From an uncultured Candidatus Rokubacteria bacterium (GTDB lineage: Bacteria > Methylomirabilota > Methylomirabilia > Rokubacteriales > CSP1-6), in assembly GCA_963747235.1 (NCBI GenBank), contig CAVVEU010000014.1, forward strand, positions 228,989-292,988: DNA of 64,000 bases, given 5' to 3'. Below are positions 2,494 to 47,518 of the stretch, piece by piece. Under the pieces are notes generated by a model, which saw only the letters and a list, made by a program, of their open reading frames with translations, had not been told where the DNA came from and did no database searches. A program made the translations under genes and the position numbers. How positions within the stretch are numbered: position 1 is the first letter of the stretch; each line of letters starts with the position of its first letter.

Positions 2494-3513
2494 ATGCGCG
2501 CCCTGGTCCTCGAAAAGTTCAACGGCCCGTTCGTCGCGAAAGACGTCCCCACCCCCACGCTCGCCCCGCACGAGGCCCTGGTCCGGGTGCGTAACGTGGG
2601 CGTCTGCGGCACCGACGTGAAGATCCGCGCCGACCGCATGGGCCTGGGCGTGATCCCGCTGATCATGGGCCACGAGATCGCGGGCGAGGTGGCCGAGGTC
2701 GGCAGCGAGGTGCGCGGCTTCGCCGCCGGGGATCGCGTCATCGTGAACTTCTACATCACCTGCGGCCGCTGCCAGGCGTGCCGCGTGGGAAGAGACACGC
2801 TGTGCTCGGACGTCCGCCAGCACGGCTTCAGCATCGACGGCGGCTTCGCGGAGTTCGTGAAGACCCCCGGCGTCAACCTCTGCAAGGTCCCCGATCACGT
2901 GTCGCTCGAGGCCGCGTGCATCCTGGGCGACGCGGTCGCGACGTCCTACCACGCGATCACCAAGCGCGCGCGGGTGCGCCCCGGCACCACGCTGGCGCTG
3001 ATCGGCGTCGGCGGCGTCGGCCTGCACGCGCTGCAGATGGCGCGGCTGGCCGGCGGCTGGGTGATCGCGGTGGACGTCAACGACGCGCGGCTCGAGCTGG
3101 CCCGGAGCCTGGGCGCCGACGCGGTGGTGGACGCCCGCAGCGGGCCCTTCCACGAAGCGATCCGCACGCTGACCGGCGGCCAGGGCGTGGACGTGGTGCT
3201 GGAGTTCGTCGCCAACGCCCAGACCCTGCCGTCCAGCGTGGCCAGCCTGAGACGAGCGGGACGCCTGGTCTTCGTCGGCTACACGCCCGAGGTCCCGCTG
3301 TCGGTCCTGCCGCGCGAGATGGTGCGAAGCGAGCTCGAGATCGTCGGCTCCCGAGCCAACACCAAGCAGGAGCTCGCGGAGACGATGGAGCTGGTGGCCC
3401 AGGGACGGATCAAGCCGATCGTGGACCGCGTGATCCCGCTGGCCGACATCGAGGAGGCCTTCACCGCGCTCCGCGAAGGCCGCCCGCTCGGGCGCAACGT
3501 GCTGGCGATCTAA
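2494..3513 (+). CDS. Zinc-dependent alcohol dehydrogenase (MDR family)
   Basis: GVCGTD, GHE, structural-Zn CGRCQACRVGRDTLC, GVGGVG; GGAGG RBS before ATG 2494. Confidence 0.93.
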   Translation: MRALVLEKFNGPFVAKDVPTPTLAPHEALVRVRNVGVCGTDVKIRADRMGLGVIPLIMGHEIAGEVAEVGSEVRGFAAGDRVIVNFYITCGRCQACRVGRDTLCSDVRQHGFSIDGGFAEFVKTPGVNLCKVPDHVSLEAACILGDAVATSYHAITKRARVRPGTTLALIGVGGVGLHALQMARLAGGWVIAVDVNDARLELARSLGADAVVDARSGPFHEAIRTLTGGQGVDVVLEFVANAQTLPSSVASLRRAGRLVFVGYTPEVPLSVLPREMVRSELEIVGSRANTKQELAETMELVAQGRIKPIVDRVIPLADIEEAFTALREGRPLGRNVLAI

Positions 3514-3522
3514 CCCCTCGGC

Positions 3523-3619
3523 CCCCTCACCCTGCCCTCTCCCCAGAGGGGAGAGGGTGGCGCGCGCGGATCCCCTCGTGAGTACCCTCTCCCCCCTGGG
3601 GAGAGGACAGGGTGAGGGG
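3523..3619. repeat. Inverted pair of BoxC-like repeats (3523-3557 reverse, 3585-3619 forward) between convergent genes
   Basis: CCCCTCACCCTGCCCTCTCCCCAGAGGGGAGAGGG ... CCCTCTCCCCCCTGGGGAGAGGACAGGGTGAGGGG. Confidence 0.9.
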
Positions 3620-3620
3620 C

Positions 3621-4031
3621 CTATGTCCTGAGGCCGGTGGCCGTGCCCACCGCGGTCTTCTCGCCGTGCTGGTTCTGGCACCACACCTCGACGACCACGC
3701 GCGTCCCCGCGCTCTCGGCCCGCGTCTCCTTCACCACGCCATGGACGGTCAGCCGATCGCCCGCGTACACGGGCGTGATGAACGCCATCGAGAGCGTCCC
3801 GCCCTTGACGAAGCCGGCGCCGAGGAGGCGCGCCATCATCTCCGAGACGTACGCGGTCGACATCATCCCCTGCGCCAGCGTGGTGCGGAACCCCTTCCGG
3901 TGCGCCCACGCCTCGTCGGTATGGATGGAGCGCGGCTTCACCCCCGAGAAGACGTCGATCCGCCGCTGCGTCGGCTCCTTCGTGAGCGCCGGCAGCTCCT
4001 GCCCGACCGCGACCGCCTCAGCGACCGACAT
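3621..4031 (-). CDS. MaoC-family (hotdog) dehydratase
   Basis: SIHTDEAWA, TLAQGMM, FITPVYAGD. Confidence 0.85.
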   Translation of the reverse strand: MSVAEAVAVGQELPALTKEPTQRRIDVFSGVKPRSIHTDEAWAHRKGFRTTLAQGMMSTAYVSEMMARLLGAGFVKGGTLSMAFITPVYAGDRLTVHGVVKETRAESAGTRVVVEVWCQNQHGEKTAVGTATGLRT

Positions 4032-4461
4032 GGCGCGTGCCCTCCGGGATCAGCATCTGCGTGAATTGCCCCCGCACGAGCGTCGTTCCCTGCTCATCCC
4101 GGGTGGCGTACTCGGTGACCATGTACTGCCGGCCGCGCCGCTCGTACTTGTCGATGACCCGCCCGCTCGTCTGCACGCGCATGCCCGGCCGCACCGGCTC
4201 GAGGAAGTTGAACTCCATCTTGGCGTGCAGCCCCGCGTGCACGATGTACTTGCTGTGCCGGAGCGAGAGGGCCTGGTTGGCCATCAGGGTGGGATGCGCC
4301 ACCGGCCCGCCCAGGGACGACGACTCCGAGTACCACGCCTGGTGGTCGTCCACCGCGAAGGCATAGGCCTCGATGTCCTCCGGCGTCACCAGGTGCGTGT
4401 CCGACACGAACTCCTCGCCGACCGTCAGCGCCTCGTACGTGAGCTTCGGGAACTCGGCCAT
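4018..4461 (-). CDS. MaoC-family dehydratase, N-terminal-type partner subunit
   Basis: YAFAVDD, PVAHPT, EFNFLEPVRPG; overlaps the start of the downstream MaoC gene. Confidence 0.8.
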   Translation of the reverse strand: MAEFPKLTYEALTVGEEFVSDTHLVTPEDIEAYAFAVDDHQAWYSESSSLGGPVAHPTLMANQALSLRHSKYIVHAGLHAKMEFNFLEPVRPGMRVQTSGRVIDKYERRGRQYMVTEYATRDEQGTTLVRGQFTQMLIPEGTRHVGR

Positions 4462-4478
4462 CGCATCTCCTCCGAGAA

Positions 4479-4557
4479 CCCTCTCCCCCCTGGGGAGAGG
4501 GCAGGGTGAGGGGTAGGGGTGAGGGGCTAGGTGGTGAGGGGCTAGGTGGTGAGGGGG
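4479..4557 (+). repeat. BoxC-like repeat with four tandem GGTGAGGGG tail units
   Basis: Hairpin 4479-4501, then GGTGAGGGG units at 13-, 15- and 15-bp periods (unit GGTGAGGGGCTAGGT). Confidence 0.9.
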
Positions 4558-4558
4558 C

Positions 4559-5509
4559 CTACCGCACCGCCGGCAACACCTCCGCGGTGAACCGGTCGAG
4601 CTGCGCCACCTGATCGTTGCCGATGAAGCGGATGCAGAGATCGGTCACGCCCACCGCGGCGTACCGCCCGATCGTCTCGATCACCACCGACGCGGGCCCC
4701 AGGCCCATCGCGCCGCGCTCGTGCACGCCGCCCCCGTAGTACGTCGCGAGGAATTCGGTGGTGACGCGCTGGGCGGTGGCCACGTCGTCGTCGAGCCGCA
4801 CCGTGGTGTACACGCAGAGGGGAAACTCCGCGCGGGGCCGGCCGTGCCGCGCCAGCGCCTCGAGCGCCCGCTCCCGGATGACCGGGATCTCCTCGAAGTG
4901 CACGTAGGTCGTGATGATGCCGTCGCCCAGACGCCCGAAGCGCTCGAACTGCGCGGGCAGCAGCTCCCCGCGATTCCCCGCGGTGATGAGCACGGGCGGG
5001 CCCTCGGTGCGCCACGGCAGCGGCCCGATGGTGTGGTCCACCAGGTCCAGATCCTCACCGTGATGGGTCACCGGCTCCCCGGTCCAGAGCTTCCGCCAGA
5101 TCGCGATGTGCTCCTCGAGCCGGCGCACGCGGGCCTTGTGGTTGGCGCCGCACGCGGCCCACTCGCGCTCGGCGCTGGGCAGGCTCCAGCCCACGCCCAG
5201 GCCCAGCACCAGCCGGCCCTGGGAGATCTGGTCGATGTTGGCGAGCTGCTGGGCCAGCACCACCGGGTGCCGCAGCGCCGGCAGCAGGACCGCGGTCCCG
5301 AGGCGCACCCGCGTGGTGATCCCGGCCAGGTAGGCCAGGGTGGTCAGGGCGTCGAGCCGCGGCTTGGCCACGATGCTGTCGCCCACCCAGACCGCGTCGT
5401 AGCCGGCCTGGTCGGCCCGCCGGGCCATGGTCCAGCAGGTCTCGACGGGAGGCCGCCGCGCCGACTCCATCACCGCGCCGCGCGTGGGAATGAGCACGCC
5501 GATTCGCAT
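4559..5509 (-). CDS. LLM-class flavin-dependent oxidoreductase
   Basis: GYDAVWVGD, TTRVRLGTAVL, RHPVVLAQ, SQGRLVLGLGVGW. Confidence 0.92.
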   Translation of the reverse strand: MRIGVLIPTRGAVMESARRPPVETCWTMARRADQAGYDAVWVGDSIVAKPRLDALTTLAYLAGITTRVRLGTAVLLPALRHPVVLAQQLANIDQISQGRLVLGLGVGWSLPSAEREWAACGANHKARVRRLEEHIAIWRKLWTGEPVTHHGEDLDLVDHTIGPLPWRTEGPPVLITAGNRGELLPAQFERFGRLGDGIITTYVHFEEIPVIRERALEALARHGRPRAEFPLCVYTTVRLDDDVATAQRVTTEFLATYYGGGVHERGAMGLGPASVVIETIGRYAAVGVTDLCIRFIGNDQVAQLDRFTAEVLPAVR

Positions 5510-34226: not shown

Positions 34227-35139
34227 ATGACGCTGGCCACCCTGCACGCGCGCTTCCTCCAGCACTGCGCGGTGGAGAAGCGACTCCGCCCGATGACGAT
34301 CAAGTCCTACCGGAGCGACTTCGGCCTCTTCCTGGCATTCCTCCGCCGCCGCCGGCGCTCTCATACCCTCTCCCCCAAGGGGAGAGGGCAGGGTGAGGGG
34401 CGGGCCAGGCCTCCGCACCTTCACCACGACGCTCATCCGCGACTACCAGGCCCACATGGCCACCCGCCGCTGGAGCGTCAACACGGTGCGCCGCCGCCTC
34501 GTCGAGCTGAACCGCTTCGCCGGCTGGCTCGTGGAGCGCCGCTATCTCCAGCGCAGCCCCATGATCGGCGTCTCGGTGCCGCGCCGCGAGCGCCGCCTGC
34601 CCCGCGTGCTCGACTGGAGCCAGGTCGAGCAGATCGTGGCCGGCGAGCGCAAGCCGCGAGACCGCGCCATCCTCGCGCTGCTCGCCTACGGCGGCCTCCG
34701 CCGCGGCGAGGTGATGGCCGCCGACGTGGGCGACTACTCGCGCGAGGCCCCCAGCCTCATGGTGCACGGCAAGGGCAACAAGGACCGCGTCGTCCCGCTG
34801 CACGCGGTGGCCCAGGCCGCGCTCGACGCCTACCTGGCCACCCGCCGCGGCCTCGCCCCCGAGCACCCCCTCTTCGTGAGCTGGCGGGGGCGCATCACCA
34901 AGCAGGTGGTGGTGCTCCTCTGCAAGCGCGTCAGCCGCCGCATCGGCCGCCGCCTGCACCCGCATCTCTTCCGCCACACCTTCGCCACCGAGCTGCTGAA
35001 CCGCCGCGCGGACCTGCGCGTGATCCAGACGCTGCTCGGGCACGAGTCGCTGGCCACCACCGAGATCTACACGCACGTGAGCCCGGAGCGAGGGCGGGAG
35101 GCGGTGGAGCTGCTGGGGGTGTTGCCGGGTGGACGTTGA
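34227..35139 (+). CDS. XerC/D-like tyrosine recombinase, interrupted by a repeat and a frameshift near 34360-34405
   Basis: N-terminal SAM-like domain (FLQHCAVEKRLRPMTIKSYRSD) and complete catalytic set GLRRGE, GKGNKDR, HLFRH, LLGH, TEIYTH. Confidence 0.9.
34366..34400 (+). repeat. BoxC-like repeat inside the recombinase coding sequence
   Basis: CCCTCTCCCC-caa-GGGGAGAGGG-CA-GGGTGAGGGG. Confidence 0.92.
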
Positions 35140-35171
35140 CGACGTTCGGCGCGCGTACCAAGTCCGCTGAG

Positions 35172-35190
35172 TGGTATCATTTCGATACCA
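35172..35190. promoter_or_regulatory. Inverted-repeat operator for TA autoregulation
   Basis: TGGTATC-atttc-GATACCA overlapping a TATCAT -10-like box; resembles RHH antitoxin operators. Confidence 0.6.
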
Positions 35191-35212
35191 ACAGAGTGAG
35201 GAGGTGGTCGCC

Positions 35213-35447
35213 ATGCCGGCTATTCACATTCGCGACCTTTCTCGAGCCACCCTCGAGAGGCTCAAGGCTCGAGCCCGGCGCAACGACCGCAGCCTTCAGG
35301 CCGAGCTCAAGAGCATCCTCGAGGGGGCGGCCGATACGGACTGGTCGGGCACTCGCGCCCTGGCGGCGAAAGCTCCGGAAAAGCCTGGCCAGGCGTGGCC
35401 ACTCGGATAGCGCCGAGCTGATCGCCGCCGATCGTCGCGCGCGATGA
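35213..35447 (+). CDS. FitA-like ribbon-helix-helix antitoxin; frameshift near 35370
   Basis: IHIRDL...RLKARARRNDRSLQAELKSIL ... DSAELIAADR; ATGA overlap with the PIN gene. Confidence 0.85.
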
Positions 35448-35866
35448 GCCAGTACGTCCTGGACGCCAACGTGCCGATCAAGTGGTTCGTCCCGGAGGAC
35501 CTCACTCCCCAGGCGGTGCGGCTCCTGGAAGGCGACCATCAGTTCATCGTCCCCGATCTCGTCTATCCGGAAACGGGCAATGCCCTGTGGCAGAAGGTCC
35601 GGCGGCGCCAGATCACGGCAAGCGAGGCTCGAGTTGCCCTGGAAGGCATCGTGACCGCGCCATTCACGACCTACCCGGCCCGTGAGCTCGTCTCCTCGGC
35701 ACTGGAGCTGGCGCTACGGCTCGAATGCACGGTCTACGACGGGTGCTACCTTGGCCTCGCCATTCTCGCCGATTGCCAGCTCGTCACGGGGGATCGTCGC
35801 CTCGAGACTCTGGCATCGGGCACCCTTCGACGGCATGTCCTGCCCCTGGCCTCCCTGCCGAGCTGA
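35444..35866 (+). CDS. vapC: VapC/PIN-domain toxin
   Basis: VLDANV, PETGNAL, TVYDGCYLGLA, LVTGDRRL. Confidence 0.9.
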   Translation: MSQYVLDANVPIKWFVPEDLTPQAVRLLEGDHQFIVPDLVYPETGNALWQKVRRRQITASEARVALEGIVTAPFTTYPARELVSSALELALRLECTVYDGCYLGLAILADCQLVTGDRRLETLASGTLRRHVLPLASLPS

Positions 35867-35930
35867 CACCGGACGTGTATCCGGTAGCGGTCATTGACCC
35901 GTCACCCCAGTCCACGCTAGCGTTCGGGAT

Positions 35931-36507
35931 GTGAATGCCTCGCCCATCCGTACACGACGCTGGACTCGAGCCGAGTACTATCGCCTTGACGAGCTCGGCA
36001 TCTTCCACCCCACCGAGCGCCTCGAGCTGGTGGGCGGTGAGATCGTGGTCAAGGACGCCAGAGTCCAGCGCATGCGACCGCGATCAGACTGGCAAGAGAA
36101 GTCTTCGAAGCCGCCTTCGGGCCGGGTTGGGACGTGCGCACCCGGAGCCCGATCACCCTCGACGAGGAGTCCGAGCCGGAGTCGGACATCGCGGTAGTGC
36201 CAGGCCGCCCCGCGACTACATCGCCGCGCACCCGTCCTGTCCGCCGCTGGTACTGGAGGTGGCCGAGGCCACCCTCTCCCTGGATCGCGACCACAAGAGC
36301 AGCCTGTATACCCGGGCGCAGATCCCAGACTACTGGCTGGTCAACGTGGTGGACCAGATACTGGAGATCCACCGAAATCCAGCCCTCGACTCTGACGCAC
36401 CTTACGGATGGCACTACGCCACGGTTTCGATCCTGCGGGGCGGCGACTTCGTGACACCCCTGGCAGCCAACTCTGCACGTATCCCCGTCGCGGACTTGCT
36501 GCCGTAA
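35931..36507 (+). CDS. Uma2-family (PD-(D/E)XK) endonuclease; two frameshifts
   Basis: RRWTRAEYYRL, RLELVGGEI, EPESDIAVV, LVLEVAE, KSSLY, IPDYWLVN. Confidence 0.85.
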
Positions 36508-36519
36508 AATAGCTCCAAC

Positions 36520-37268
<749 letters not shown>

Positions 37269-37737: not shown

Positions 37738-38793
37738 CTATTCGACGGACCCGAACGGCGGCACGACATCGACTCCTGCAACGTGGCTAGCAAGACAGTA
37801 CAGAAATTGGTTCGGTTGCGTCTTCAGGAACTCACTGACCAGCCACGCGTACCGCTGCGACACGATCCGGTCGAAGTCATATGGCTTATACCTTGTGATT
37901 GATCCCAAGTAGAACATCACCGCGTAGATCGTCGCGAGTGGTGGCAAGATCTCGGACGGCGGAATCGTCGCCAAGTAGTAGCGGTAGCCCGGCCGCGTCA
38001 GGATCGGCCATACGCCAACTTTCTGAAGGCGCTCCGCGATCCGTCGCAGCGCCCTGTCTCGTGCGTTCCTTGCGCCTGCGACACCCGTCGTTTCGAACCA
38101 ACGGGCCTCATCCTCGGGAGACCTCACCTCATTCAGAGCTGCGACGAAGCGCCGCCGTGACCGCACACCCCCCAGCGTCGTTCGCACGTCGGCATCGCCT
38201 CTCGACAAGATCGCGCGTGCGAACACCATCCCCTGATCGCTGAGGAGGACGAACTCCTTCACCGGAAGGAAGACTGGCCTCTCTCCTGTCACTCTGCAAA
38301 ACGTCCGGTGAATGCCAGGGATCTGGCGAAGGAGTGATATCACGCGAATGATCCGTCGTCGGTTGGAGATGCCCCCGAGAGTCGTCACCAGCTCCGGAAG
38401 CAACTCTGAATGATCCGGGCGACGCGCTTCAAAGACAACACGCTGGCCCTGGAGTTGCAGCCGAGTCTTGATGTTCTCCTTCGGATCTCGAATCCCATGT
38501 CTTGGTGCAACCGCGATCGGAACTCGTCGAATCAGCAAAAGCACCTTTGCGAGATTCAAGAACGAGTAGTAGTACAGGAGGGGCCGTGATCCGGTCCTTG
38601 GGTTCCTCGCAGCTTCAAAAAACTCGAAGGCCTGATCCACGAAAGCCGCAGCCTGTGTCTCGTCGGCCTTCGGTAGTCGATCCCGGGCTTCATGGGTCAG
38701 ATACGCCCACACGTCGGCGGTAACCACCCGCGGCTTGGCGCTTCGAGACGTACAAGGGGAAGCCCGTTGGCGCATCGCGTACGGGCCTCCCAT
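37738..38793 (-). CDS. YaaC-like protein
   Basis: QAFEFFEAA, RPLLYYYSFLNLAK, HG, MFYLGSITRYKP; start uncertain (38775-38793). Confidence 0.72.
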   Translation of the reverse strand: MGGPYAMRQRASPCTSRSAKPRVVTADVWAYLTHEARDRLPKADETQAAAFVDQAFEFFEAARNPRTGSRPLLYYYSFLNLAKVLLLIRRVPIAVAPRHGIRDPKENIKTRLQLQGQRVVFEARRPDHSELLPELVTTLGGISNRRRIIRVISLLRQIPGIHRTFCRVTGERPVFLPVKEFVLLSDQGMVFARAILSRGDADVRTTLGGVRSRRRFVAALNEVRSPEDEARWFETTGVAGARNARDRALRRIAERLQKVGVWPILTRPGYRYYLATIPPSEILPPLATIYAVMFYLGSITRYKPYDFDRIVSQRYAWLVSEFLKTQPNQFLYCLASHVAGVDVVPPFGSVE

Positions 38794-38828
38794 TCTTTGG
38801 GTCCGGAAAAGGCACGGGTTATATCGAC

Positions 38829-41800
38829 CTACGCCCGGCCCAGAACGCCAATCCACTCCGCGACGACCTGCACGTCCCCCTCGGACTGCGGAGTCAGGTG
38901 ATCGGCTTGAAGTCGGGGTTCAGCGGTGACAGCGCGATTTCTGCGTGTCGCCAGCCGCCTTCGCCGTCCGCCACGCTTCTCGAGGAGTAGCGCTTCACGG
39001 TGAATGCGCCGCCGGTGTCGGGATCAGCCGGCCCTCGATACTGCACGAGAACGATCTTCCCTTGGCGGCTCCCTCCGGCTTCGCGCGGAAGACACAGTAG
39101 TCGCCATCGCGGATCGTCGGCTCCATCGAGCGGCCGACGGCCCCGCCACGAACATCTGCTCGTCGAGCCTGCCGACGCCGTCGGCCTCGACCCAACCCTC
39201 CGGCTCCACCGCCTCGCCGTTCCCGAAGTAGCCGGCGGCGGCCTTGAGGGAGTAGAGCGGCAGCAGCGTCTTGAACGCCTCTCGCTTGACCCGCTCGTCG
39301 TCGAGCGAGATCAGGCGGAGCTGCGGCTCAGGACGCGGCACGACGAGCGCCTCGGCCAGGTCCGCCAGCGACTGCACGCCGCGCCGCAAGCGCTGCCTCG
39401 AACTTCCGCTGCGGCACGAAGAGATACCGCCACTGGCCATACTCGGTGCCGCTCATCTTCTCGCACCAGAGCCGCGCCGCCTCGCTCTTGAGCGCCGTGT
39501 TCGGCCGGATCTCGCCCTTGGTCTCGGCGAGCCACATCACCTCGCGGCCGTCCGCGTCGCGCGCCGACGATGATGAAGTCCGGGTAGTACTGCCGCGGCC
39601 GGTTGCTCTCGTAGTAGGTCACCGAGAAGCCGAAGCCGCTCGTTCTTGAAGTAGCGGACGACATCCTTCGCGCCGTCGAGGAAGTCGGCGAAGCGCTTCT
39701 CGAGGTCGGTGTGGCAGGGCACCTTGTTCGTGTGGCAGCGCTTGCCCTCGGCGACGATGCCGGTCCACTGGAAGCGGCGCAGGTTCGCCGAGTCGAGCCA
39801 CTCCGGGAGCCGAGGATCGGCACGGCCTCGACGCCCGGCGACGCCGGCGCCGCGAATCGCAGTGTCGAGCACGTCCAGCGCCTGCCGCCGCCAGAAGTAG
39901 ATGCCGACGTCGCGCAGGTCGCTCTGCACGCCGCCCACCTCCAGCGGCACGACCCGCGAATCGAGGTAGCGCCGCGACACGTCGAGCAGCTCGTCGAAGG
40001 TCGGGCCGATGCCGAGGTCCGCAGCGGAGCCCGGGTTGGTCTCCTGGTACAGCTCCTCGGCCATCAGGAAGGCCGTCCGCAGCATCGGCCACTCCTTGCG
40101 GACCTCCTCGAGCGTCATGACCGCCTCGGGCGCGCCACCCACGACCGGGCGCACATGCACATCCGGCGGCGTCTCCTTCGGGTTGAGCCGAATCTGCGGC
40201 AGGTCCTCCACCCGGATCAGATCCGCCAGCGACTCGGTCACGCCCACCGCCCACGACCGCACGTTCGGCACCTGCACGCGGTACTTCTCCTTCTTCGGGT
40301 CCGGCTCGATCCAGACCGGCTTCTGGCCCCACTCGCCGGTCTTGGGACGCTTGCGCTTCTCGACCGGGAAGCCGACGAAGGGGATGCCGAAGGCGTCCAC
40401 CGTCTCCTCGCTCCCCTCGGGTCGCTCCTCGAGCGGCTGGTTCAGCACGTCGTAGTTCGTGCGCCGCAAGCCCGCGGCCGATGATCTGCTCGGTCAGGAG
40501 CGGCGAACCGAAGGCGCGCAGGCCGAGGATGTGGGTCACGCTCTTCACGTCCCAGCCCTCGGAGAGCATGTTCACGCTGACGATGCAGCGCACGTGCTCG
40601 CCGGGCTTCCCCTTCGAGCCGACGGTGTTCACCATCTCGCGCAGCACCGCCTCGTTGCCCTTGTCGGCGTCGAAGACCTTGGAGTCGATCTGGATCGTCA
40701 CCCAGCGCGTGCGGTCGTCGTCGTCCGGGTTGCGCAGCAGCTCGTACTCGCGCGTCAGGTGCTCGAAGAGCCACGCGGCGCGCTGGGCGCTGTCGGCCAC
40801 GCAGAGGAGCACCGGGCTCGGCCCGGCCGCATCGAACTCGAACGTGCTCGCCCACTCGTCGTGGTCCTTCTTCCACGACGAGTAGATGCTCGCGATCGCG
40901 CCCTTGCAGGCGCGCAGGTACTCCTCCTTGGTCTTGGCGCCCTTCACCAGGTCCCACAGGTCGAGGTACACGCGCCCGTGCTCGTCCGGATCGGGCAGGC
41001 GCACGACCTTGACCAGCCCGGACTCGAACGCGTCGTAGACCGAGAAGTCCGACACCAGCCACTCGAAGAGCGTCCCCTCCGGCTTGGGCGAGCCGGAGCC
41101 GTACCAGGGCGTCGCCGACAGGTCGATCACCAGGCTCACGCGCGCGGCCTTGCCGATGCGCTCGAGGATCTTGCTCCACTTGATGTAGCTCGGGGTCCTC
41201 GCCCTTCTTGCCGCGCTTCTCGCCGTAGACGTGGTGCGCCTCGTCGTTGATCACCACGAGGTCGCGCCAGCCGCCGAGCAGCCGCCGGATCGGCGCGTTC
41301 GGGTCCTGCCGCGCGCGGCGCTGCATCGCGCGCAGCACCGCCTGCGGGATGAACCGCCCCTCCTCGAGCGGCACCTCGCCCTCGCCGATCCAGTCCTCGC
41401 GCTTCGCTCTCGAGCGGGATGCCCTGCCAGTTGCGCACCAGCACGTTCGGGTGGAACTCCTCCCGGTACTCGGGCGGCACCATCTCGAAGGCGTCGTAGA
41501 GGTTGTGCTCGCCGGCCGGGTCGAGCCCGTCGCCGCGCGGCTGCCCGCTCACCCGGTCGCGCACCGTGAGGTTCGGCACGAGCACCAGGAAGTTCGCCGA
41601 GAGCGACGAGCCGCTCACCTTGCGCTTGTGCAGCGTCGCCCAGGTGACGAAGAGCGCCATCACCACGGTCTTGCCGGTGCCGGTGGCGAGCTTGAGCGCG
41701 TAGCGCAGCAGGTCGCCGGTCTCCGGCATCTTCCGCCGGCCCTGCACCTCGTAGAGGTAGATGACCGTCTCGACCGCCTCCTGCTGGCAGAAGAAGAAGC

Positions 41801-42159
41801 GCTTGCGCGACCGCCCGGCGCTCCTCGTCGCGCTCGAACCACCACTCGAGCAGCCGCCGCGTGACCACCGCCGTGCCCGGGTAGCCGGCCTCGCGCCACG
41901 CGCGCACCTCGTCGCGGAGCTGGTTGACGAAGTCGTTCACTGCTCGGCGGCTGAGGCCGAGCAGGTCCTCGAAGAGCCGCGCCTCCTTGCCGACGACGCC
42001 GGCGATGCCGCCCTTCACGTCCTTCGCCGAGGCGAGGAAGCGCATCGACGGCCGGCGCGTCTCGACGCGCTTCGAGCGGCCGCCGGGCAGGAGCTGGTAG
42101 TGCCGGTCCGGCTCGCGGAAGGCGTCGCAGATGACGACGCGATCGACAACGTAGGCCAT
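38829..42159 (-). CDS. res: Type III restriction Res-like SF2 helicase-nuclease with C-terminal S24 (LexA-like) peptidase domain; many frameshifts
   Basis: LATGTGKT, DEAHH, SATP, MLSEGWD, QIIGRG, YYPDFII...ETKG, then LPLYSLKAAAG, GRSMEP, GDYCVFR, TVKRY, PLNPDF, VVAEW. Confidence 0.82.
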
Positions 42160-42172
42160 CGCGCGCGCCTCC

Positions 42173-44726
42173 TTACGCCAGGTCCCGCACGACGGTGGAC
42201 TCGTTGCCGTACACGTCCACGACCTTCACCGCGATGCGCTTGTAGCCGCGCACCGGGAACGGCTCCGAGTCGAGCTTGAGCGTGAACTCCTCCGGGTCCA
42301 CCTCGGCCTTGAGCGCGGCCTTGATGTTCGGCGCCTTCTTGAAGTCGAAGAACATCTGGCAGTCCACGAAGCAGTCGCCGTCGTAGTCCTCGTCGAGGTA
42401 CCACGCCGAGACGTAGCCCGAGTCCGCCGCCTTGTACTCGGTGGTGCGGCGCTTGCGGTCGAAGAGCGCCACACCCTTGAGCGTGACGCGGAGCTGCTTC
42501 TCCTTGCCGTTCTTCTCGACCGCGACCTCGATGTCCGGCAGCGCGAGCGGCGAGAAGAGCATCTCCGGCTGCGTCGCCTTGAGCCCCTCGGCGAGCGTGT
42601 CCGGGCGGATCATGATCAGCTCGACCTTCACCTTGCCGCGCTTCTCGAGCTGCGACTTCACCTCGCCGACGTTCGCCTCGAAGGCCCAGCCGAGCACGTG
42701 CACCTCGAGGATGCCCGAGGCGAGCGCGTCCTGGACGGCGTCGTTGATCTGCTTGCCGGTCACGCGGCCCGAGAGCGGCCCGACGGAGATCGCGATCTTC
42801 TCCTTCTCGGTCTCCGCCACCGCGTGCACGAGCCCGGTCGCGCCCTGGATCGCCGCGTCCTTGCGGTAGAGGCGGCAGATCACCTCGATGTAGTTCTCGA
42901 GCTTCGCCGCCTCGCCGATGCCCGGCTCGCGGACGACGTAGCCCTTCCAGTCCTCGACGGAGTAGCGGCCGAGGGACATGACCTCGAAGGGACCGCAGAC
43001 GCGGATGGCGTCCTTGTCCACCTCGGGCTGATCGACGAGTTCGACCTTCTCGGGCTCAAGGTCGTAGGCGAGGCTCTTGAGCGTGATCGCGGTTGACGCG
43101 TCTTGTAGACGAAGTTCGCCGGACACCTTGCCGTTGCGGGTCTTGTAGTGCTCGAAGCACTGCCGACAGCAAGCGCTGGCGCGCGACATTGACCGCGACA
43201 CGCGACGTGTCGCACGTGATCCACCGTCGGCCCAAGCGTCTCGGCGCAGAACGCAGTCGTGCCAGAGCCGCAGGTTGGGTCGAAGACAAGATCGCCCGGG
43301 TCTGTCGTCATCAGCGATGCAGCGCTCGACGACCTTCGGCGATGTCTGGACGACATAGAGCTTGTGCTCCGCGAAGCCGCCGATGCCGGTGTCGTCCCAG
43401 ATGTTGGTGAACGGCGACGACAGGGAAGTCGTCCGCGTAGCGCTTGTAACGCGAGGCTGCTTCCCGACGCGAATGAGCCGTCGCCTTCTCGCGAGTCGCT
43501 CGCAGCCCTTCGAGGTCCGTCTTCCAGTGGCTGTTCGGCGGCAGGTGAGTACGTCTCGCCCTCGAACTCGAACGGCTCGAGCCGTCCTCGCGACTCGCCC
43601 TTGCGACGAGAGATCGTCAGGCATGAAACGCCGTGCACCATCGGGAAGCGGTCGATGCCTCGCGCTTCTCCTCAGTCGTCAGTCGTCGCACGCGTGCCGT
43701 CCGGCAGCTCCACATAGCGTGTACTGCTCGACAGCGTCGATCCGCCGGCCTTTCGGCATGTAGAGCTGTCGGTACTTGCAGCGCTGCGCTTGTCCTTCGC
43801 GTACCAGAGCAGGTAGTCGCACACTGATCGCAAGACCGGCGTCGCTCTTGCCCGGTCGTCTTGTAGAACGCGATCAGTGCGCAACGAAGTTGGCTGCGCC
43901 AAACACCTCGTCCAGCAGCGTCCGCACGAGGTGCACATTCTCGTCGCTGATCTGGACGAAGATCGAGCCCGATCTCGGTCAGCAGCTCGCGGCAGAGGTA
44001 GAGGCGCTCCTGCAGGTAGGAGAGATACGAGTGAATCCCAAGCGCCCACGTGTCGCGAAACGCCTTGATCGTCAGCACGTCGTCGGCCGCGTCCTTCTCG
44101 TCGTTCTTCGTCGAATCCACCCGCTGCTGGAAGTTCGAGTCGTACTTGATGCCGTACGGCGGGTCGATGTAGATCATCTGCACCTTGCCGCGCAGGTTCT
44201 CGTAGTGGAGCAGCGACTCCATCACGTGCAGCGAGTCGCCGCAGATGAGCTTGTTCTTCCAGCCCTCCTCGTGGGTGTAGAACTCGACGCGCTTGCTCCG
44301 GTCGCTCTCGCGCAGCGTCTTCTCGAGGTCGGCGAAGAGGTGCCCCTGCCGCGCCGCGCCCGACTTCTCCTCGGCCGCCCGGCGCGCCCGCTCGATGATC
44401 TGCGCGATGCGCGACTCGGAGACGATCTCGTTGCGCTGGAGCGGCAGCACCGGCACCTCGCGCCGGTTGCGCTTGCCCGCCCAGAAGAGCACCGGGTCCG
44501 CCGCCGGGTCCATGTCCACGACCACCGGCCGCTCGTCGCCCTCCGGCAGCTTCCCGACCTCGATCGCCTTGCTCCAGCCGTTGTCCATCGGCAGCGTCAC
44601 CACCTGCTCCTCGGCCGGCAGCAGCGACGTGTGCCCGGTCTCGGGCGTGCGCGGCTCCTTGATGTCGTCGTAGGTGTAGCGGGTGACCTTCTTCTCGGTC
44701 TTCGGCTTCTTGGGGTTCGCGGCCAT
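42173..44726 (-). CDS. mod: Type III Mod-like N6-adenine DNA methyltransferase; many frameshifts
   Basis: [58 protein letters not shown]. Confidence 0.88.
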
Positions 44727-44743
44727 GTCGCTCTTGCTCCTCG

Positions 44744-47518
44744 TCACTTGGTTCCGGCAGCGGCCCGGCCGGCCGTGCACATGCCGCGATAGTCGCAGGC
44801 TGCCGCACTTCTTCGGCGTCGGGCGCGGTCGGCAGCGTCGCCGGTGCGCAGCGCCTCGGCCGCGTCGCGCACCTTCGTCTTCACATCGGCGATGAAGTCG
44901 TCGTCCACCGAGCGCGGCTTGCGCTTGCGCTCGTCCAGCTCGTAGATCTCCACGTAGTCCGGCCGGCGGCCGGTGAGGTCCTGGTAGCCGAGCGCGTAGA
45001 CGTGGAGCTGCGTCTCGGTGACGTCCTCCGCCTGGGCGCGATCGCTCGACTTGAGGTCGACGATCGTCGTCTCGCCGGTGTCGATCCGGCGCACGAGGTC
45101 GATGCGCCCGACGATGCTCACGCCGTCGCCGAGGCTGATCTCGATCTGCTTCTCGGAGAACTCGATCTTGTCGAAGAGCGCTGCGTTGTCGGCCAGGTAG
45201 TCGCGCAGCACGCGCTCGGCCGACTGCCTCGAGCTGCTGCCGCAGCGCCGGGTACGCGTAGGGCGCGTGCAGGTGCGTCTCGACGAGCCGCGGCACCTCG
45301 CTCGCGTCGGCGACGTCGCCGCGGATCGCGCGGGCGTGCACCTCGGCCAGCGCGTCGTGCAGCGACTTGCCGTAGCCGAGCGCCTCGTGGATCGGCGCGT
45401 TGAAGCCGTAGAGGATGCGCAGCTTGAACTGGTAGGGACACTCGAAGAAGTACTTGAGGTCGGAGAACGAGAAGACGACGTTCGCGACGCCGGCGCGCGG
45501 CGTCGGCGGCAGGCGCTTGCGCGTCGAGTAGTCGGGCGCGCGGCGCTTCACGTACTTCGAGGCGAGGATGTCGTTCCAGAACTCGCGAGCGCCGCTGCGT
45601 AACGGTTGTTCTTGCCGGCGATCGGCGCCCAGGTCAGGTGCAGGAACTTCTGGCTGCGCGTCATCGCGACGTAGAAGAGCCGCCGCTCGTCCTCGATCGT
45701 GCCCTCGAAGCGCGCCTGCCCTCGGACGCCGGCGCGGGGCAGCAGGTGCCAGACGCTGCGGCCACCGCTTCTTGCCGCCGGGAAGCGGTTCCGGAGCAGC
45801 GCCGGCACGAACACGACCGGCCACTGCATTCCCTTGGCCTGGTGGATGGTCATGATCCGCACGGCGTCGGGGTTGGCGTACTGGTTGTCCTGCCAGCCCT
45901 CGGGGTAGGCGTCCTCGGCGCGGTACTGGAGGAAGTCGGCGAACGAGCCGTACTTCTCGACCGGCTTCGAGTGGAAGTGGATCGTCTCGAAGTCGGAGAT
46001 GACCTGGCTGAACTTGCCGAGGTTGTAGAAGACGACCTCGCCTCGCCCGTCCGGAACCAGCTCCTCGCGGACGCCAGCCTCCTCGAGGAAGTTCAGGAAG
46101 ACGCGCTGGATCGAGTACTGCCCCCAGCGCTTCTGGTCGGGATCGGTCAGCGCGGCCTTGGCGGCGGCGGCGCCCGCGATCGCCTGATCGAGCGCCGCCG
46201 GGTCGAGGCCGAGACTGGCGGCCTCCCAGGCGCCTTCAGCGGCAGCTTCGTCCACCCCTGGCCGGTCGGCGATGAAGTAGAAGAGCTGCCGGGCCGCTTC
46301 CGCCTCGGCGTGCCGAACAGGTTCGTCATGCCGGTGACGACGAACGGGATGCCGGCCGCCTGAAGCGCTCGCGTGATCGGCTCGGCGTTCGCCTTCACGC
46401 TGCGCAGCAAGCACCGCCATGTCGGACCAGGACAGCCCACGCTCGACCTCGTCCTCCTTGAACGCGACGCCACGCAGCGCCTGGATCGTCTCGGCGATGT
46501 GACTGCGCCTCCTCATCCGGGTCGGCGAACGAGAGCGCCACGATGTCGCCGGCCTCGTAGGGCTGCGCGCCGGTCGGCTTCATCGCCTTCGGGAGCCGCG
46601 CGCCGTTCTGCTCGATGAAGGCGCGCGCCGTCTCGACGATGCCCTCGCTCGAGCGGAAGTTCTCTTCGAGGGGAATCTGCTCGACGCCGGGGTAGCGCTT
46701 GTCGAACGTGAGGATGTTCTCGACGTCGCTGCCGCGCCACTGGTAGATCGTCTGGTCGTCGTCGCCGACCACGCAGATGCGCGCGCCCAGCTCGTGCAGC
46801 GACCAGACGATCGCCTCCTGCACCGGGTTCACGTCCTGGTACTCGTCGACGATGACGTACTTCACGCGCTCGGCGAGGCGCTCTCGGAGGCCGTCGTCGT
46901 TCGTCAGGAGCGTCGACCGCCTCTTCGAGGATCGACGAGTAGTCGAGGTAGCTCTTGTCGTCGAGCAGGCCTTGGTAGGCCGTCGAGGCCGTCGAGCAGC
47001 GAGCAGCCGTCGAGCTGCGCGTCATCGCGTTCCGCTTCGCGCAGGATCGACAGCGCGGTGACGTAGTGCCCGGTGTCCCGGTAACGCTTCAGCGCCGCGC
47101 CGGTGAGGTCGGTGGACGTGGTGAGCCCGCTCTTGCTTGCTGTTGCGATCGACGAACAGCCCCTGCTGGACCTCGTTCAGGACCTCGAACTTGAGGTACT
47201 TCGGCGACTCGGACTTCAGAAGCTCGAGGCAGAAGGCGTGGATCGTGCCGACGAACATCTCGGCCATGCCCGGGATGCTCGCCGAGCGCCTCGCGGGTGC
47301 GCGTGACGATCCGCTCCTTCAGCTCGGCGGCGGCCTTGTCGGTGAAGGTGAAGGCGATGATGTTGCGCGGCGCGAGAGCGCTCCGCCCTGCCCGGCGTGA
47401 GCAGATGGACGACGCGCCGCGCGACGACCTCGGTCTTGCCGGACCCGGCGCAGGCGATGAGCTGGAGGTTGCCGCCGCCGTGCTCGATGGCCTTCTGCTG
47501 GGAATCAGTGAGCTTCAC
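44744..47518 (-). CDS. UvrD/PcrA-like SF1 helicase fused to a RecB/AddB-type PD-(D/E)XK nuclease; frameshifts
   Basis: ACAGSGKT, FTFT, GTIHAFC, VDEYQD, GDDDQTIY, ENFRS, TIHQAKG, ERRLFYVAMTR; then CPYQF, GRID, VDLKS, QLHVY and a terminal Cys cluster. Confidence 0.88.

Follow-up and report, generated by a model that had tools for sequence, protein, structure and literature searches.

A LexA-type S24 peptidase module at the C-terminus of Res in a mobile type III-like restriction-modification cassette

Type III restriction-modification (R-M) systems, exemplified by EcoP15I and EcoP1I, carry mod upstream of res, and their Res subunit is a superfamily 2 (SF2) helicase followed by a C-terminal PD-(D/E)XK nuclease; they cut in an ATP-dependent manner at unmethylated sites in inverse orientation. 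The S24 peptidases (PF00717), which include the C-terminal domain of LexA, UmuD and the cI repressor of phage lambda, combine a Ser-Lys dyad with an Ala-Gly or Cys-Gly bond on a loop just N-terminal of the catalytic core, and their self-cleavage is stimulated by RecA filaments on single-stranded DNA or by alkaline pH. Here, we analysed a window of 64,000 nucleotides (nt) from an uncultured Candidatus Rokubacteria bacterium (contig CAVVEU010000014.1, positions 228,989 to 292,988), in which these two architectures come together. At 38829..42159 on the minus strand of this window lies the res gene of a horizontally mobile type III-like R-M cassette of three genes, with the gene order and the predicted domain order just described. 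Its product, which we call Res-S24, ends in a module that shares the dyad and the scissile bond of the S24 peptidases and resembles LexA in the loop LPL...AAG and in a C-terminal L-P-x-N-x-(E/D)-(F/Y)-x-P-I-V motif.

A further point of comparison is the ClpXP-dependent alleviation of the type I enzyme EcoKI, a proteolytic shut-off that protects unmethylated host DNA after damage or recombination (PMC11109961). Proteolytic alleviation is understood for type I enzymes, whereas it is largely open how other restriction and defence nucleases protect the cell from themselves on damaged or unmethylated DNA. If the tail of Res-S24 worked as a built-in LexA-type sensor, it would link a universal DNA-damage signal to immunity directly, independently of transcription.

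The Res-S24 fusion and its reading in the window

The earlier note on this stretch had read the locus as one polypeptide joining Res to a complete S24 autopeptidase, and had suggested searching homologues for the same architecture. Intact homologues bear out this reading. A scan with one genome per species found 45 Res loci (best-segment identity 65-94%), whose record titles name at least 12 phylum-level groups. The C-terminus could be read in 39 of them, the contig ending before it in the remaining six, and the S24 tail follows in frame, within one open reading frame (ORF), in 30 of the 39 and is absent from nine. In 23 intact genomic loci the ORF is continuous over 1098-1109 codons, and protein records run to 1102-1120 amino acids (aa). 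One such protein, P0001, has in a single chain Pfam matches to ResIII (residues 123-349), weakly to Helicase_C (520-563), slightly below the cut-off to RE_endonuc (809-895), and to Peptidase_S24 (968-1090). A 75-aa query spanning the nuclease to the S24 core (window 39150-39374, minus strand), and thus made of linker and cleavage site alone, retrieved 471 proteins at E<=1e-3, with a best value of 7.8e-34, which excludes a chance match. Among the 120 homologues listed of these 471, 67 have at least 1000 aa, and nearly all of the 67 are annotated with both PF04851 and PF00717. We are almost certain that the fusion is real.

The contrary explanation is an artefact of stitching, in which Res would be followed by a separate, adjacent S24 repressor-like gene whose stop and start remained hidden. 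It draws on the fact that the S24 part of the window sits in other frames than the nuclease part. Yet the long ORFs and protein records just described are continuous across the join, the linker is highly conserved, no helix-turn-helix (HTH) domain was found, and the lexA model matches the C-terminal half only. The earlier note had named the arrangement that would speak against the fusion, a stop with an HTH-S24 repressor gene of its own beyond it, and no such gene exists. The intact one-ORF homologues rule the artefact out, and the probability that we leave to it is negligible.

In the window itself, no ORF covers the whole region from 42159 to 38829 on the minus strand, which is instead broken up over three frames into ten or more overlapping ORFs, all with recognisable parts of one protein. 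The peptides picked out in the earlier note are all there on this strand, spread over different frames: YYPDFII in ORF 39311-39823, ETKG in ORF 39328-39540, EAFKTLLPLYSLKAAAGYF in ORF 39024-39440, GRSMEPTIRDGDYCVFR in ORF 38995-39195, and FTVKRY together with PLNPDF in ORF 38894-39046. With the intact P0001 (1106 aa) as query, ungapped tblastn matches tile residues 1-1105 over 42159-38835 with 12 frame changes. Aligned at the DNA level with seven intact relatives, the gene shows 13 single-base indels, eight of them insertions and five deletions, and one 4-base insertion; the latter lies 19 nt from one of the deletions, and the two compensate each other. Projected onto a relative's frame, Res and S24 form the single reading that had been proposed: its 1107 codons, two of them undetermined, include no stop, and a TAG at 38829-38831 closes it. 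The claim that no stop separates the nuclease from the S24 part likewise stands, as none is found in this read-through or in the 30 intact loci.

The frame damage extends over the whole cassette: indel events number 14 in Res, and frame changes about 11 in Mod and about 10 in the helicase-nuclease gene. Other long genes of the window hold one frame for more than 2 kb. In the same genome, a metagenome-assembled genome (MAG) of 42 contigs and 88% completeness, the rpoB match runs for 2.8 kb in one frame, and RecA and a canonical S24 protein are intact. We consider it very probable that the indels are consensus or polishing errors in a heterogeneous or low-coverage region, because the read-through has no stops and no excess of substitutions. 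Of 413 positions that do not vary among 23 intact relatives, it differs at 2 (each relative's own count being 0-41), and its terminal branch in a quick IQ-TREE tree of 30 Res bodies is 0.023, against a median of 0.087. The copy is then probably intact in the organism.

That this copy and the whole cassette, though not the family, are a genuine pseudogene produced by frameshifts seems improbable to us. The number of indels speaks for it, as do the integrase (34227-35447) and Uma2 (35931-36507) genes, both on the plus strand, each of which looks split over two overlapping frames, and the presence of relatives without these indels in four other metagenomes. Neutral decay by some 35 indels should, however, have left many substitutions and some stops, and the read-through has neither a stop in its 1107 codons, nor more than the two changed invariant residues, nor a terminal branch above the median. 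Moreover, consensus errors would be expected in a MAG from a setting with many near relatives of the cassette per metagenome. Contigs of related cassettes indeed number 357-758 per run in four runs, at 85-99% identity; they come from relatives and cannot separate real from assembly indels. A search of sequencing runs did not recover the source sample, none containing over 0.25 of the sampled words. The problem may span the whole island, from about 34.2 to 47.5 kb, with the exception of a YaaC-like ORF, and in this genome the cassette region needs polishing before its gene calls are trusted. As a separate observation, the rpoB match (G000:C24:133232-136003) lies in an open frame of 3798 aa and an rpoC model found nothing in the genome; this frame may be a fused or read-through rpoBC.

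The domains of the Res body could be placed on the minus strand by way of P0001. ResIII, the N-terminal lobe of the SF2 helicase with a Walker A GTGKT (residue 159) and a DEAH box (residue 304), maps to 41107..41789; PF04851 scores 43.6 bits in P0001 and 25.9 bits in the window piece 41136-41747, with a cut-off of 22.5. The Helicase_C motif region (residues 520-563, 40466..40596) is matched weakly, at 16.8 and 18.7 bits under a cut-off of 23.5, the window match falling within the piece 39619-41139, and the PADLOC model REase_III PDLC03648 matches the same stretch. The predicted PD-(D/E)XK endonuclease domain occupies 39463..39725, with the Asp codon of its PD at 39578-39580 and the Glu and Lys codons of ETKG at 39523-39525 and 39517-39519. 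RE_endonuc (PF19778) reaches 20.9 bits in P0001, slightly under its cut-off of 23.4, PADLOC REase_III PDLC03647 matches residues 798-897, and the PD...ETK motif is readable. The best named match of the Res body is the BPTD_3080 family restriction endonuclease (NCBIfam NF046055), at 571 bits with an equivalog cut-off of 800; judged by its sequence, the Res body is a relative of this family, not an equivalog.

Residues, fold and distribution of the S24 module

The optional C-terminal module, at 38832..39353 on the minus strand, begins with a linker of some 45 aa, which leads through a cleavage loop into the S24 catalytic core. On the same strand, the predicted scissile Ala-Gly pair, in LPLYSLKAAA/GYF with the cut between the last Ala and the Gly, is encoded at 39231..39236, the predicted nucleophile Ser of GRSMEP, equivalent to LexA S119, at 39127..39129, and the predicted general-base Lys of FTVKRY, equivalent to LexA K156, at 38993..38995. 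The Ala-Gly site and Ser/Lys dyad that the earlier note had pointed out are thus present in the window copy, and they are invariant or nearly so in the 29 tailed Res loci that were counted (L018, the thirtieth, was left out). The AAA before the Gly, the Ser and the Lys occur in all 29, and the scissile Gly in 28, with a Ser in its place in L039.

The same residues are conserved far beyond these loci. When 1.84 billion cluster representatives were searched with only the module as query, 1789 scored at E<=1e-3, of which 1084 reached 1e-10 and 169 reached 1e-30. We took the top 150, of which 131 cover the whole module. The Ser is found in 130 of these 131 and the Lys in every one; at P1, just before the scissile bond, 90 have Ala and 38 have Cys, and at P1', just after it, 122 have Gly.

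In Pfam terms, PF00717 scores 33.8 bits in P0001, above its cut-off of 23.3, and 16.1 bits in the window fragment 38995-39195 taken alone, where the score is low because of the frameshifts. The lexA model TIGR00498 matches residues 973-1103 with its positions 92-200 only, at 28.6 bits against a cut-off of 110.95. Lacking a full-length match to this model and an N-terminal winged-helix domain, the protein is, on its sequence, not a LexA. An AlphaFold2 model of the last 228 residues, of moderate quality (predicted local distance difference test, pLDDT, 73; the other four of the five models were poor), has as its best Foldseek matches, with probability 1.00, the LexA proteins of E. coli, Thermotoga, Pseudomonas and Mycobacterium, followed by UmuD' and lambda cI, with a TM-score of up to 0.80 (normalised by target length) and about 19-30% identity to solved LexA chains. 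Searches of solved structures with a single sequence or a narrow profile gave marginal LexA hits only, and a broader profile (A2) was required. Aligned with E. coli LexA, the profile of 30 diverged modules pairs its Ser with S119 and its Lys with K156, and the C-terminal motif L-x-P-x-N-x-(E/D)-F-x-P-I-V is common to both.

The module also has features of its own. Two family-specific insertions flank the Lys strand, D-P-(E/D)-T-G-G on its N-terminal side (positions 108-113 of module L044:10800-11318) and W-x-H on its C-terminal side (positions 132-134). Both are absent from LexA and conserved in the 131 modules (D in 130, W in 112, H in 116), and they could serve as an additional binding or sensing site. 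A complex prediction with two module copies (A2, residues 20-173), run without controls, gave scores of 0.02 and 0.01, where the mark is 0.42, and is silent on dimerisation either way. Given its residues and its modelled fold, we think it likely that the module is competent for cleavage. A cut after Ala971 would divide P0001 into a Res body of 971 aa ending in ...LKAAA and an S24 fragment of 135 aa.

The S24 tail is dispensable for the Res backbone. In the nine loci without it, the gene ends at almost the same place, give or take a few codons (...SLAELA), just past the nuclease domain; the downstream DNA of these nine is unrelated, and no S24 remnant was found there. The Res tree includes six of the nine and omits L009 (partial), L042 and L043 (both frame-broken), all three without the tail. 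The six are scattered in the tree, which takes at least five gains or losses, and the nearest relative of the window in it, L015, has 92% identity and no S24 tail. The module has thus been gained and lost on near-identical backbones.

The tail is also shared with other enzymes. It is C-terminal, within 20 residues of the protein end, in 124 of the 131 complete modules. We scanned with Pfam the 61 of the top 150 module hits that have at least 300 aa: 21 show S24 only, many of these representatives probably being fragments, and 40 have a second domain, which in 39 cases belongs to R-M or defence enzymes. Most frequent is the Schlafen-group-3 helicase, with or without GIY-YIG (11 proteins), followed by Type_ISP_C (six), other ResIII helicases (five), the type I S subunit (Methylase_S, three) and the MrfA/DUF1998 zinc domain (three, one of them a DEAD-box protein of 1878 aa with an MTES_1575 nuclease). 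The type I R C-terminal domain, Schlafen AlbA_2 and AlwI occur in two proteins each, and LlaJI, an MmeI-like enzyme, DUF3427, RE_endonuc, N6_Mtase and a topoisomerase zinc ribbon in one each. The S24 tail is therefore promiscuous, and caps type I, ISP, IIG and II enzymes as well as Schlafen-like defence enzymes; many of its carriers are nucleases able to harm the cell that makes them. With one module on so many unrelated enzymes, work on a single protein would inform the whole class.

Some occurrences depart from this layout. The module is internal in 7 of the 131 (e.g., P0146, P0147, P0200 and P0261), in one case before a topoisomerase-type zinc ribbon and in another inside an MmeI-like enzyme, and cleavage would there split the enzyme in two instead of trimming a tail. 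In the plasmid collection we found only distant, S24-less relatives of Res, which align over residues 1 to about 935 at 28-30% identity. Its one S24-module hit is on the replicon NZ_CP040452.1 of a cultured strain, Halomonas sp. PA16-9 (L050:4989-7459), where a helicase-like ORF of 686 aa is followed at once, in another frame, by a module from this clade, in a part of the record that bears no annotation; the two may be overlapping genes or a fusion broken by a frameshift.

Candidate roles of the tail

The idea, already put forward in the earlier note, of a switch that responds to SOS or single-stranded DNA (ssDNA) fits the near-invariant catalytic and cleavage-site residues and the predicted LexA-like fold. 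By analogy with known systems, we lean slightly towards a role in which a signal triggers self-cleavage and thereby inactivates restriction. A cellular signal would stabilise the cleavable conformation and the module would cut itself at the Ala-Gly bond. This signal would most likely be the RecA-ssDNA filament (RecA*), which would be workable in any host. The products, in P0001 numbering, would be the 971-aa body and the 135-aa fragment, and the new Ala-Ala C-terminus of the body may act as a protease degron that disables Res, much as the Ala-Ala end of the LexA N-terminal fragment makes it a ClpXP substrate. Restriction would in this way be turned off at the protein level, as alleviation or as a fuse against autoimmunity, upon damage to the cell's own DNA or on arrival of the cassette in an unmethylated host.

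As a universal signal, RecA* suggests itself as the trigger for a cassette that moves between phyla; the host genome studied here has an intact RecA. By analogy with LexA, we put the odds of this identification at about even. In the E. coli complex, F203 of RecA enters a LexA pocket lined by V79, V82, F111, L113, V146 and V153 (10.1101/2023.10.30.564768). Four of these six pocket residues align by profile to conserved hydrophobic residues of the module: in the 131 modules, the F111 position holds F in 127 and the V146 position L in every one, Y or F stands opposite V153 in 129, and A or V opposite L113.

Several points weigh against this account. The residues equivalent to the pocket are also core residues, so that their conservation is weak evidence for RecA*. 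The degron leans on the behaviour of the LexA fragment, and the small residues at that site are also needed by the S24 active site. The N-terminal domain of E. coli LexA aids binding to RecA*, and bulk on that side impedes the complex (10.1101/2023.10.30.564768). By this comparison, an enzyme of 970 aa in place of the N-terminal domain may dock poorly on RecA*, unless the 45-aa linker gives it room. The conserved D-P-(E/D)-T-G-G and W-x-H insertions could also mean a different trigger. As to direction, the S24-less variant with 92% identity shows that the enzyme does not need its tail, which fits an off-switch and an on-switch equally.

The direction of the switch is close to balanced, and analogy inclines us only marginally to cleavage turning restriction off rather than on. 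The conserved residues of the module bear on cleavage, not on direction. Three considerations favour an off-switch: self-protection is already provided by the Mod of the cassette, enzymes without the tail represent the ordinary active state, and the alleviation of EcoKI by ClpXP, the one known precedent, protects unmethylated host DNA. Under the opposite scheme, the uncleaved tail would keep Res latent, and RecA* formed on phage ssDNA or replication intermediates would release the active nuclease, so that restriction takes place only during infection. UmuD, which is activated by S24 self-cleavage, is a precedent for this direction. The tail is also found on enzymes for which the scans show no methyltransferase domain, namely Schlafen-group-3 helicases (11 of the 61), RE_AlwI and RE_LlaJI, and for such enzymes activation by a signal is the usual logic of defence. 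For Res, however, self is already told from non-self by the Mod present in 32 of 32 loci with enough upstream DNA, and S24-less variants would be active at all times, as such enzymes normally are. It would be dangerous to activate a nuclease while host DNA is genuinely damaged, specific inhibitory docking on so many unrelated enzyme bodies is hard to picture, and the alleviation of EcoKI runs the opposite way (PMC11109961). We regard an on-switch as unlikely.

We find it less likely still that the tail is no signal-responsive switch and serves instead for constitutive oligomerisation or as a scaffold, or for constitutive processing of itself or of others, or else that it answers to a signal other than RecA* received through the insertions. 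The C-terminal domains of LexA, CI and UmuD do dimerise, and the two insertions have no counterpart in LexA. There are also LexA-like proteins that are independent of RecA, such as IrvR (PMC7101444). Against this, the near-invariant Ser, Lys and Ala/Cys-Gly of 131 diverged modules suggest that cleavage itself, and not the fold alone, has been selected, and the Res backbone can dispense with the tail.

The off-switch could be extended into a general fuse that is independent of the host. RecA* arising from damage that a restriction or defence nuclease does to the cell's own chromosome, from any SOS event or from entry of the cassette as ssDNA into an unmethylated host would have the tail cut, the Ala-Ala end exposed and the enzyme degraded. 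Type I, II, IIG/ISP and III enzymes would then have one portable mechanism of alleviation in common with Schlafen/Nhi-like and DISARM-like enzymes. We offer this extension tentatively. If true, it could explain the spread of such cassettes over more than 12 phyla at 70-94% protein identity. A module of this kind would also give engineers a small, portable protein switch that responds to damage.

The cassette, its surroundings and its described relatives

In the intact loci, the Res-S24 gene is the last of three. It is preceded by a Mod of 870-963 aa, whose orthologue in L044 matches N6_N4_Mtase at 1.1e-32 and PADLOC MTase_III at 8.9e-129, and this in turn by the first gene, which encodes a UvrD-type helicase of 919-979 aa fused to a PD-(D/E)XK/Cas4-like nuclease. 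Mod lies upstream of Res in all 32 loci with at least 2.7 kb of upstream DNA, and both genes are found in 30 of the 31 loci with at least 5.4 kb, the exception being L008. In the window, both are on the minus strand: the type III N6/N4 DNA methyltransferase gene at 42173..44807 and the helicase-nuclease gene at 44744..47518. The latter overlaps the start of mod by about 64 nt (the L044 copy lies at 2680-5439). The helicase-nuclease might process cut DNA or produce ssDNA for the loading of RecA.

The Res tree cuts across taxonomy, to the point that copies from Dehalococcoidia and Rhodanobacteraceae are 94% identical, and frequent horizontal transfer follows from this. The sequences point to a very recent and very broad spread of the cassette by this route. 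In the window, the cassette (38829-47518) lies in a stretch of lower GC content, 0.63-0.70 compared with 0.70-0.76 around it, and its neighbours are a tyrosine integrase, FitA/PIN, Uma2, nucleotidyltransferase and BrnT genes, and a YaaC-like gene. Small genes of toxin-antitoxin type (a FitA-like ribbon-helix-helix protein with PIN, the nucleotidyltransferase and BrnT) lie at 35171-37268 on the plus strand, between the integrase and the cassette. Together, toxin-antitoxin cluster, integrase and cassette make a typical defence or addiction island. A tblastx comparison of neighbourhoods was too noisy in this GC-rich DNA to be used.

The YaaC-like gene (37738-38856, minus strand) is intact, with 372 aa and a match to PF14175 at 2.6e-32, and gave no PADLOC or NCBIfam match. 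It is called from a GTG and overlaps the Res stop by 28 nt. We considered it as a fourth gene of the cassette and rejected it, since a homologue occurs in 0 of the 45 loci.

The Res-S24 fusion is widespread and apparently undescribed. A full-text literature search, with subscription journals and supplements outside its scope, turned up no paper that describes restriction or defence enzymes with an S24 tail. The preprint of Millman et al. came up as a candidate and was discarded, as 'S24' is there the number of a table, and a term look-up in a preprint on the YprA helicase found no wording on an S24 tail. Databases label the homologues "DEAD/DEAH box helicase family protein", "type III restriction enzyme" or "S24 family peptidase".

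Among the described relatives of Res-S24, the BPTD_3080 family has a model of 970 positions and plasmid members without an S24 tail. Type III systems share the order of genes and of predicted domains, but their Res has no such tail; the cassette differs further in its conserved upstream helicase-nuclease gene, and the REase_III models match Res-S24 in part. LexA has the HTH domain that the module lacks at its N-terminus, whereas the module is the tail of an enzyme of 970 aa and has its own insertions around the Lys strand. The alleviation of EcoKI would follow the same logic as the one proposed here for Res-S24, with the difference that an external protease degrades HsdR on the DNA, whereas Res-S24 would have its sensor and protease built in.

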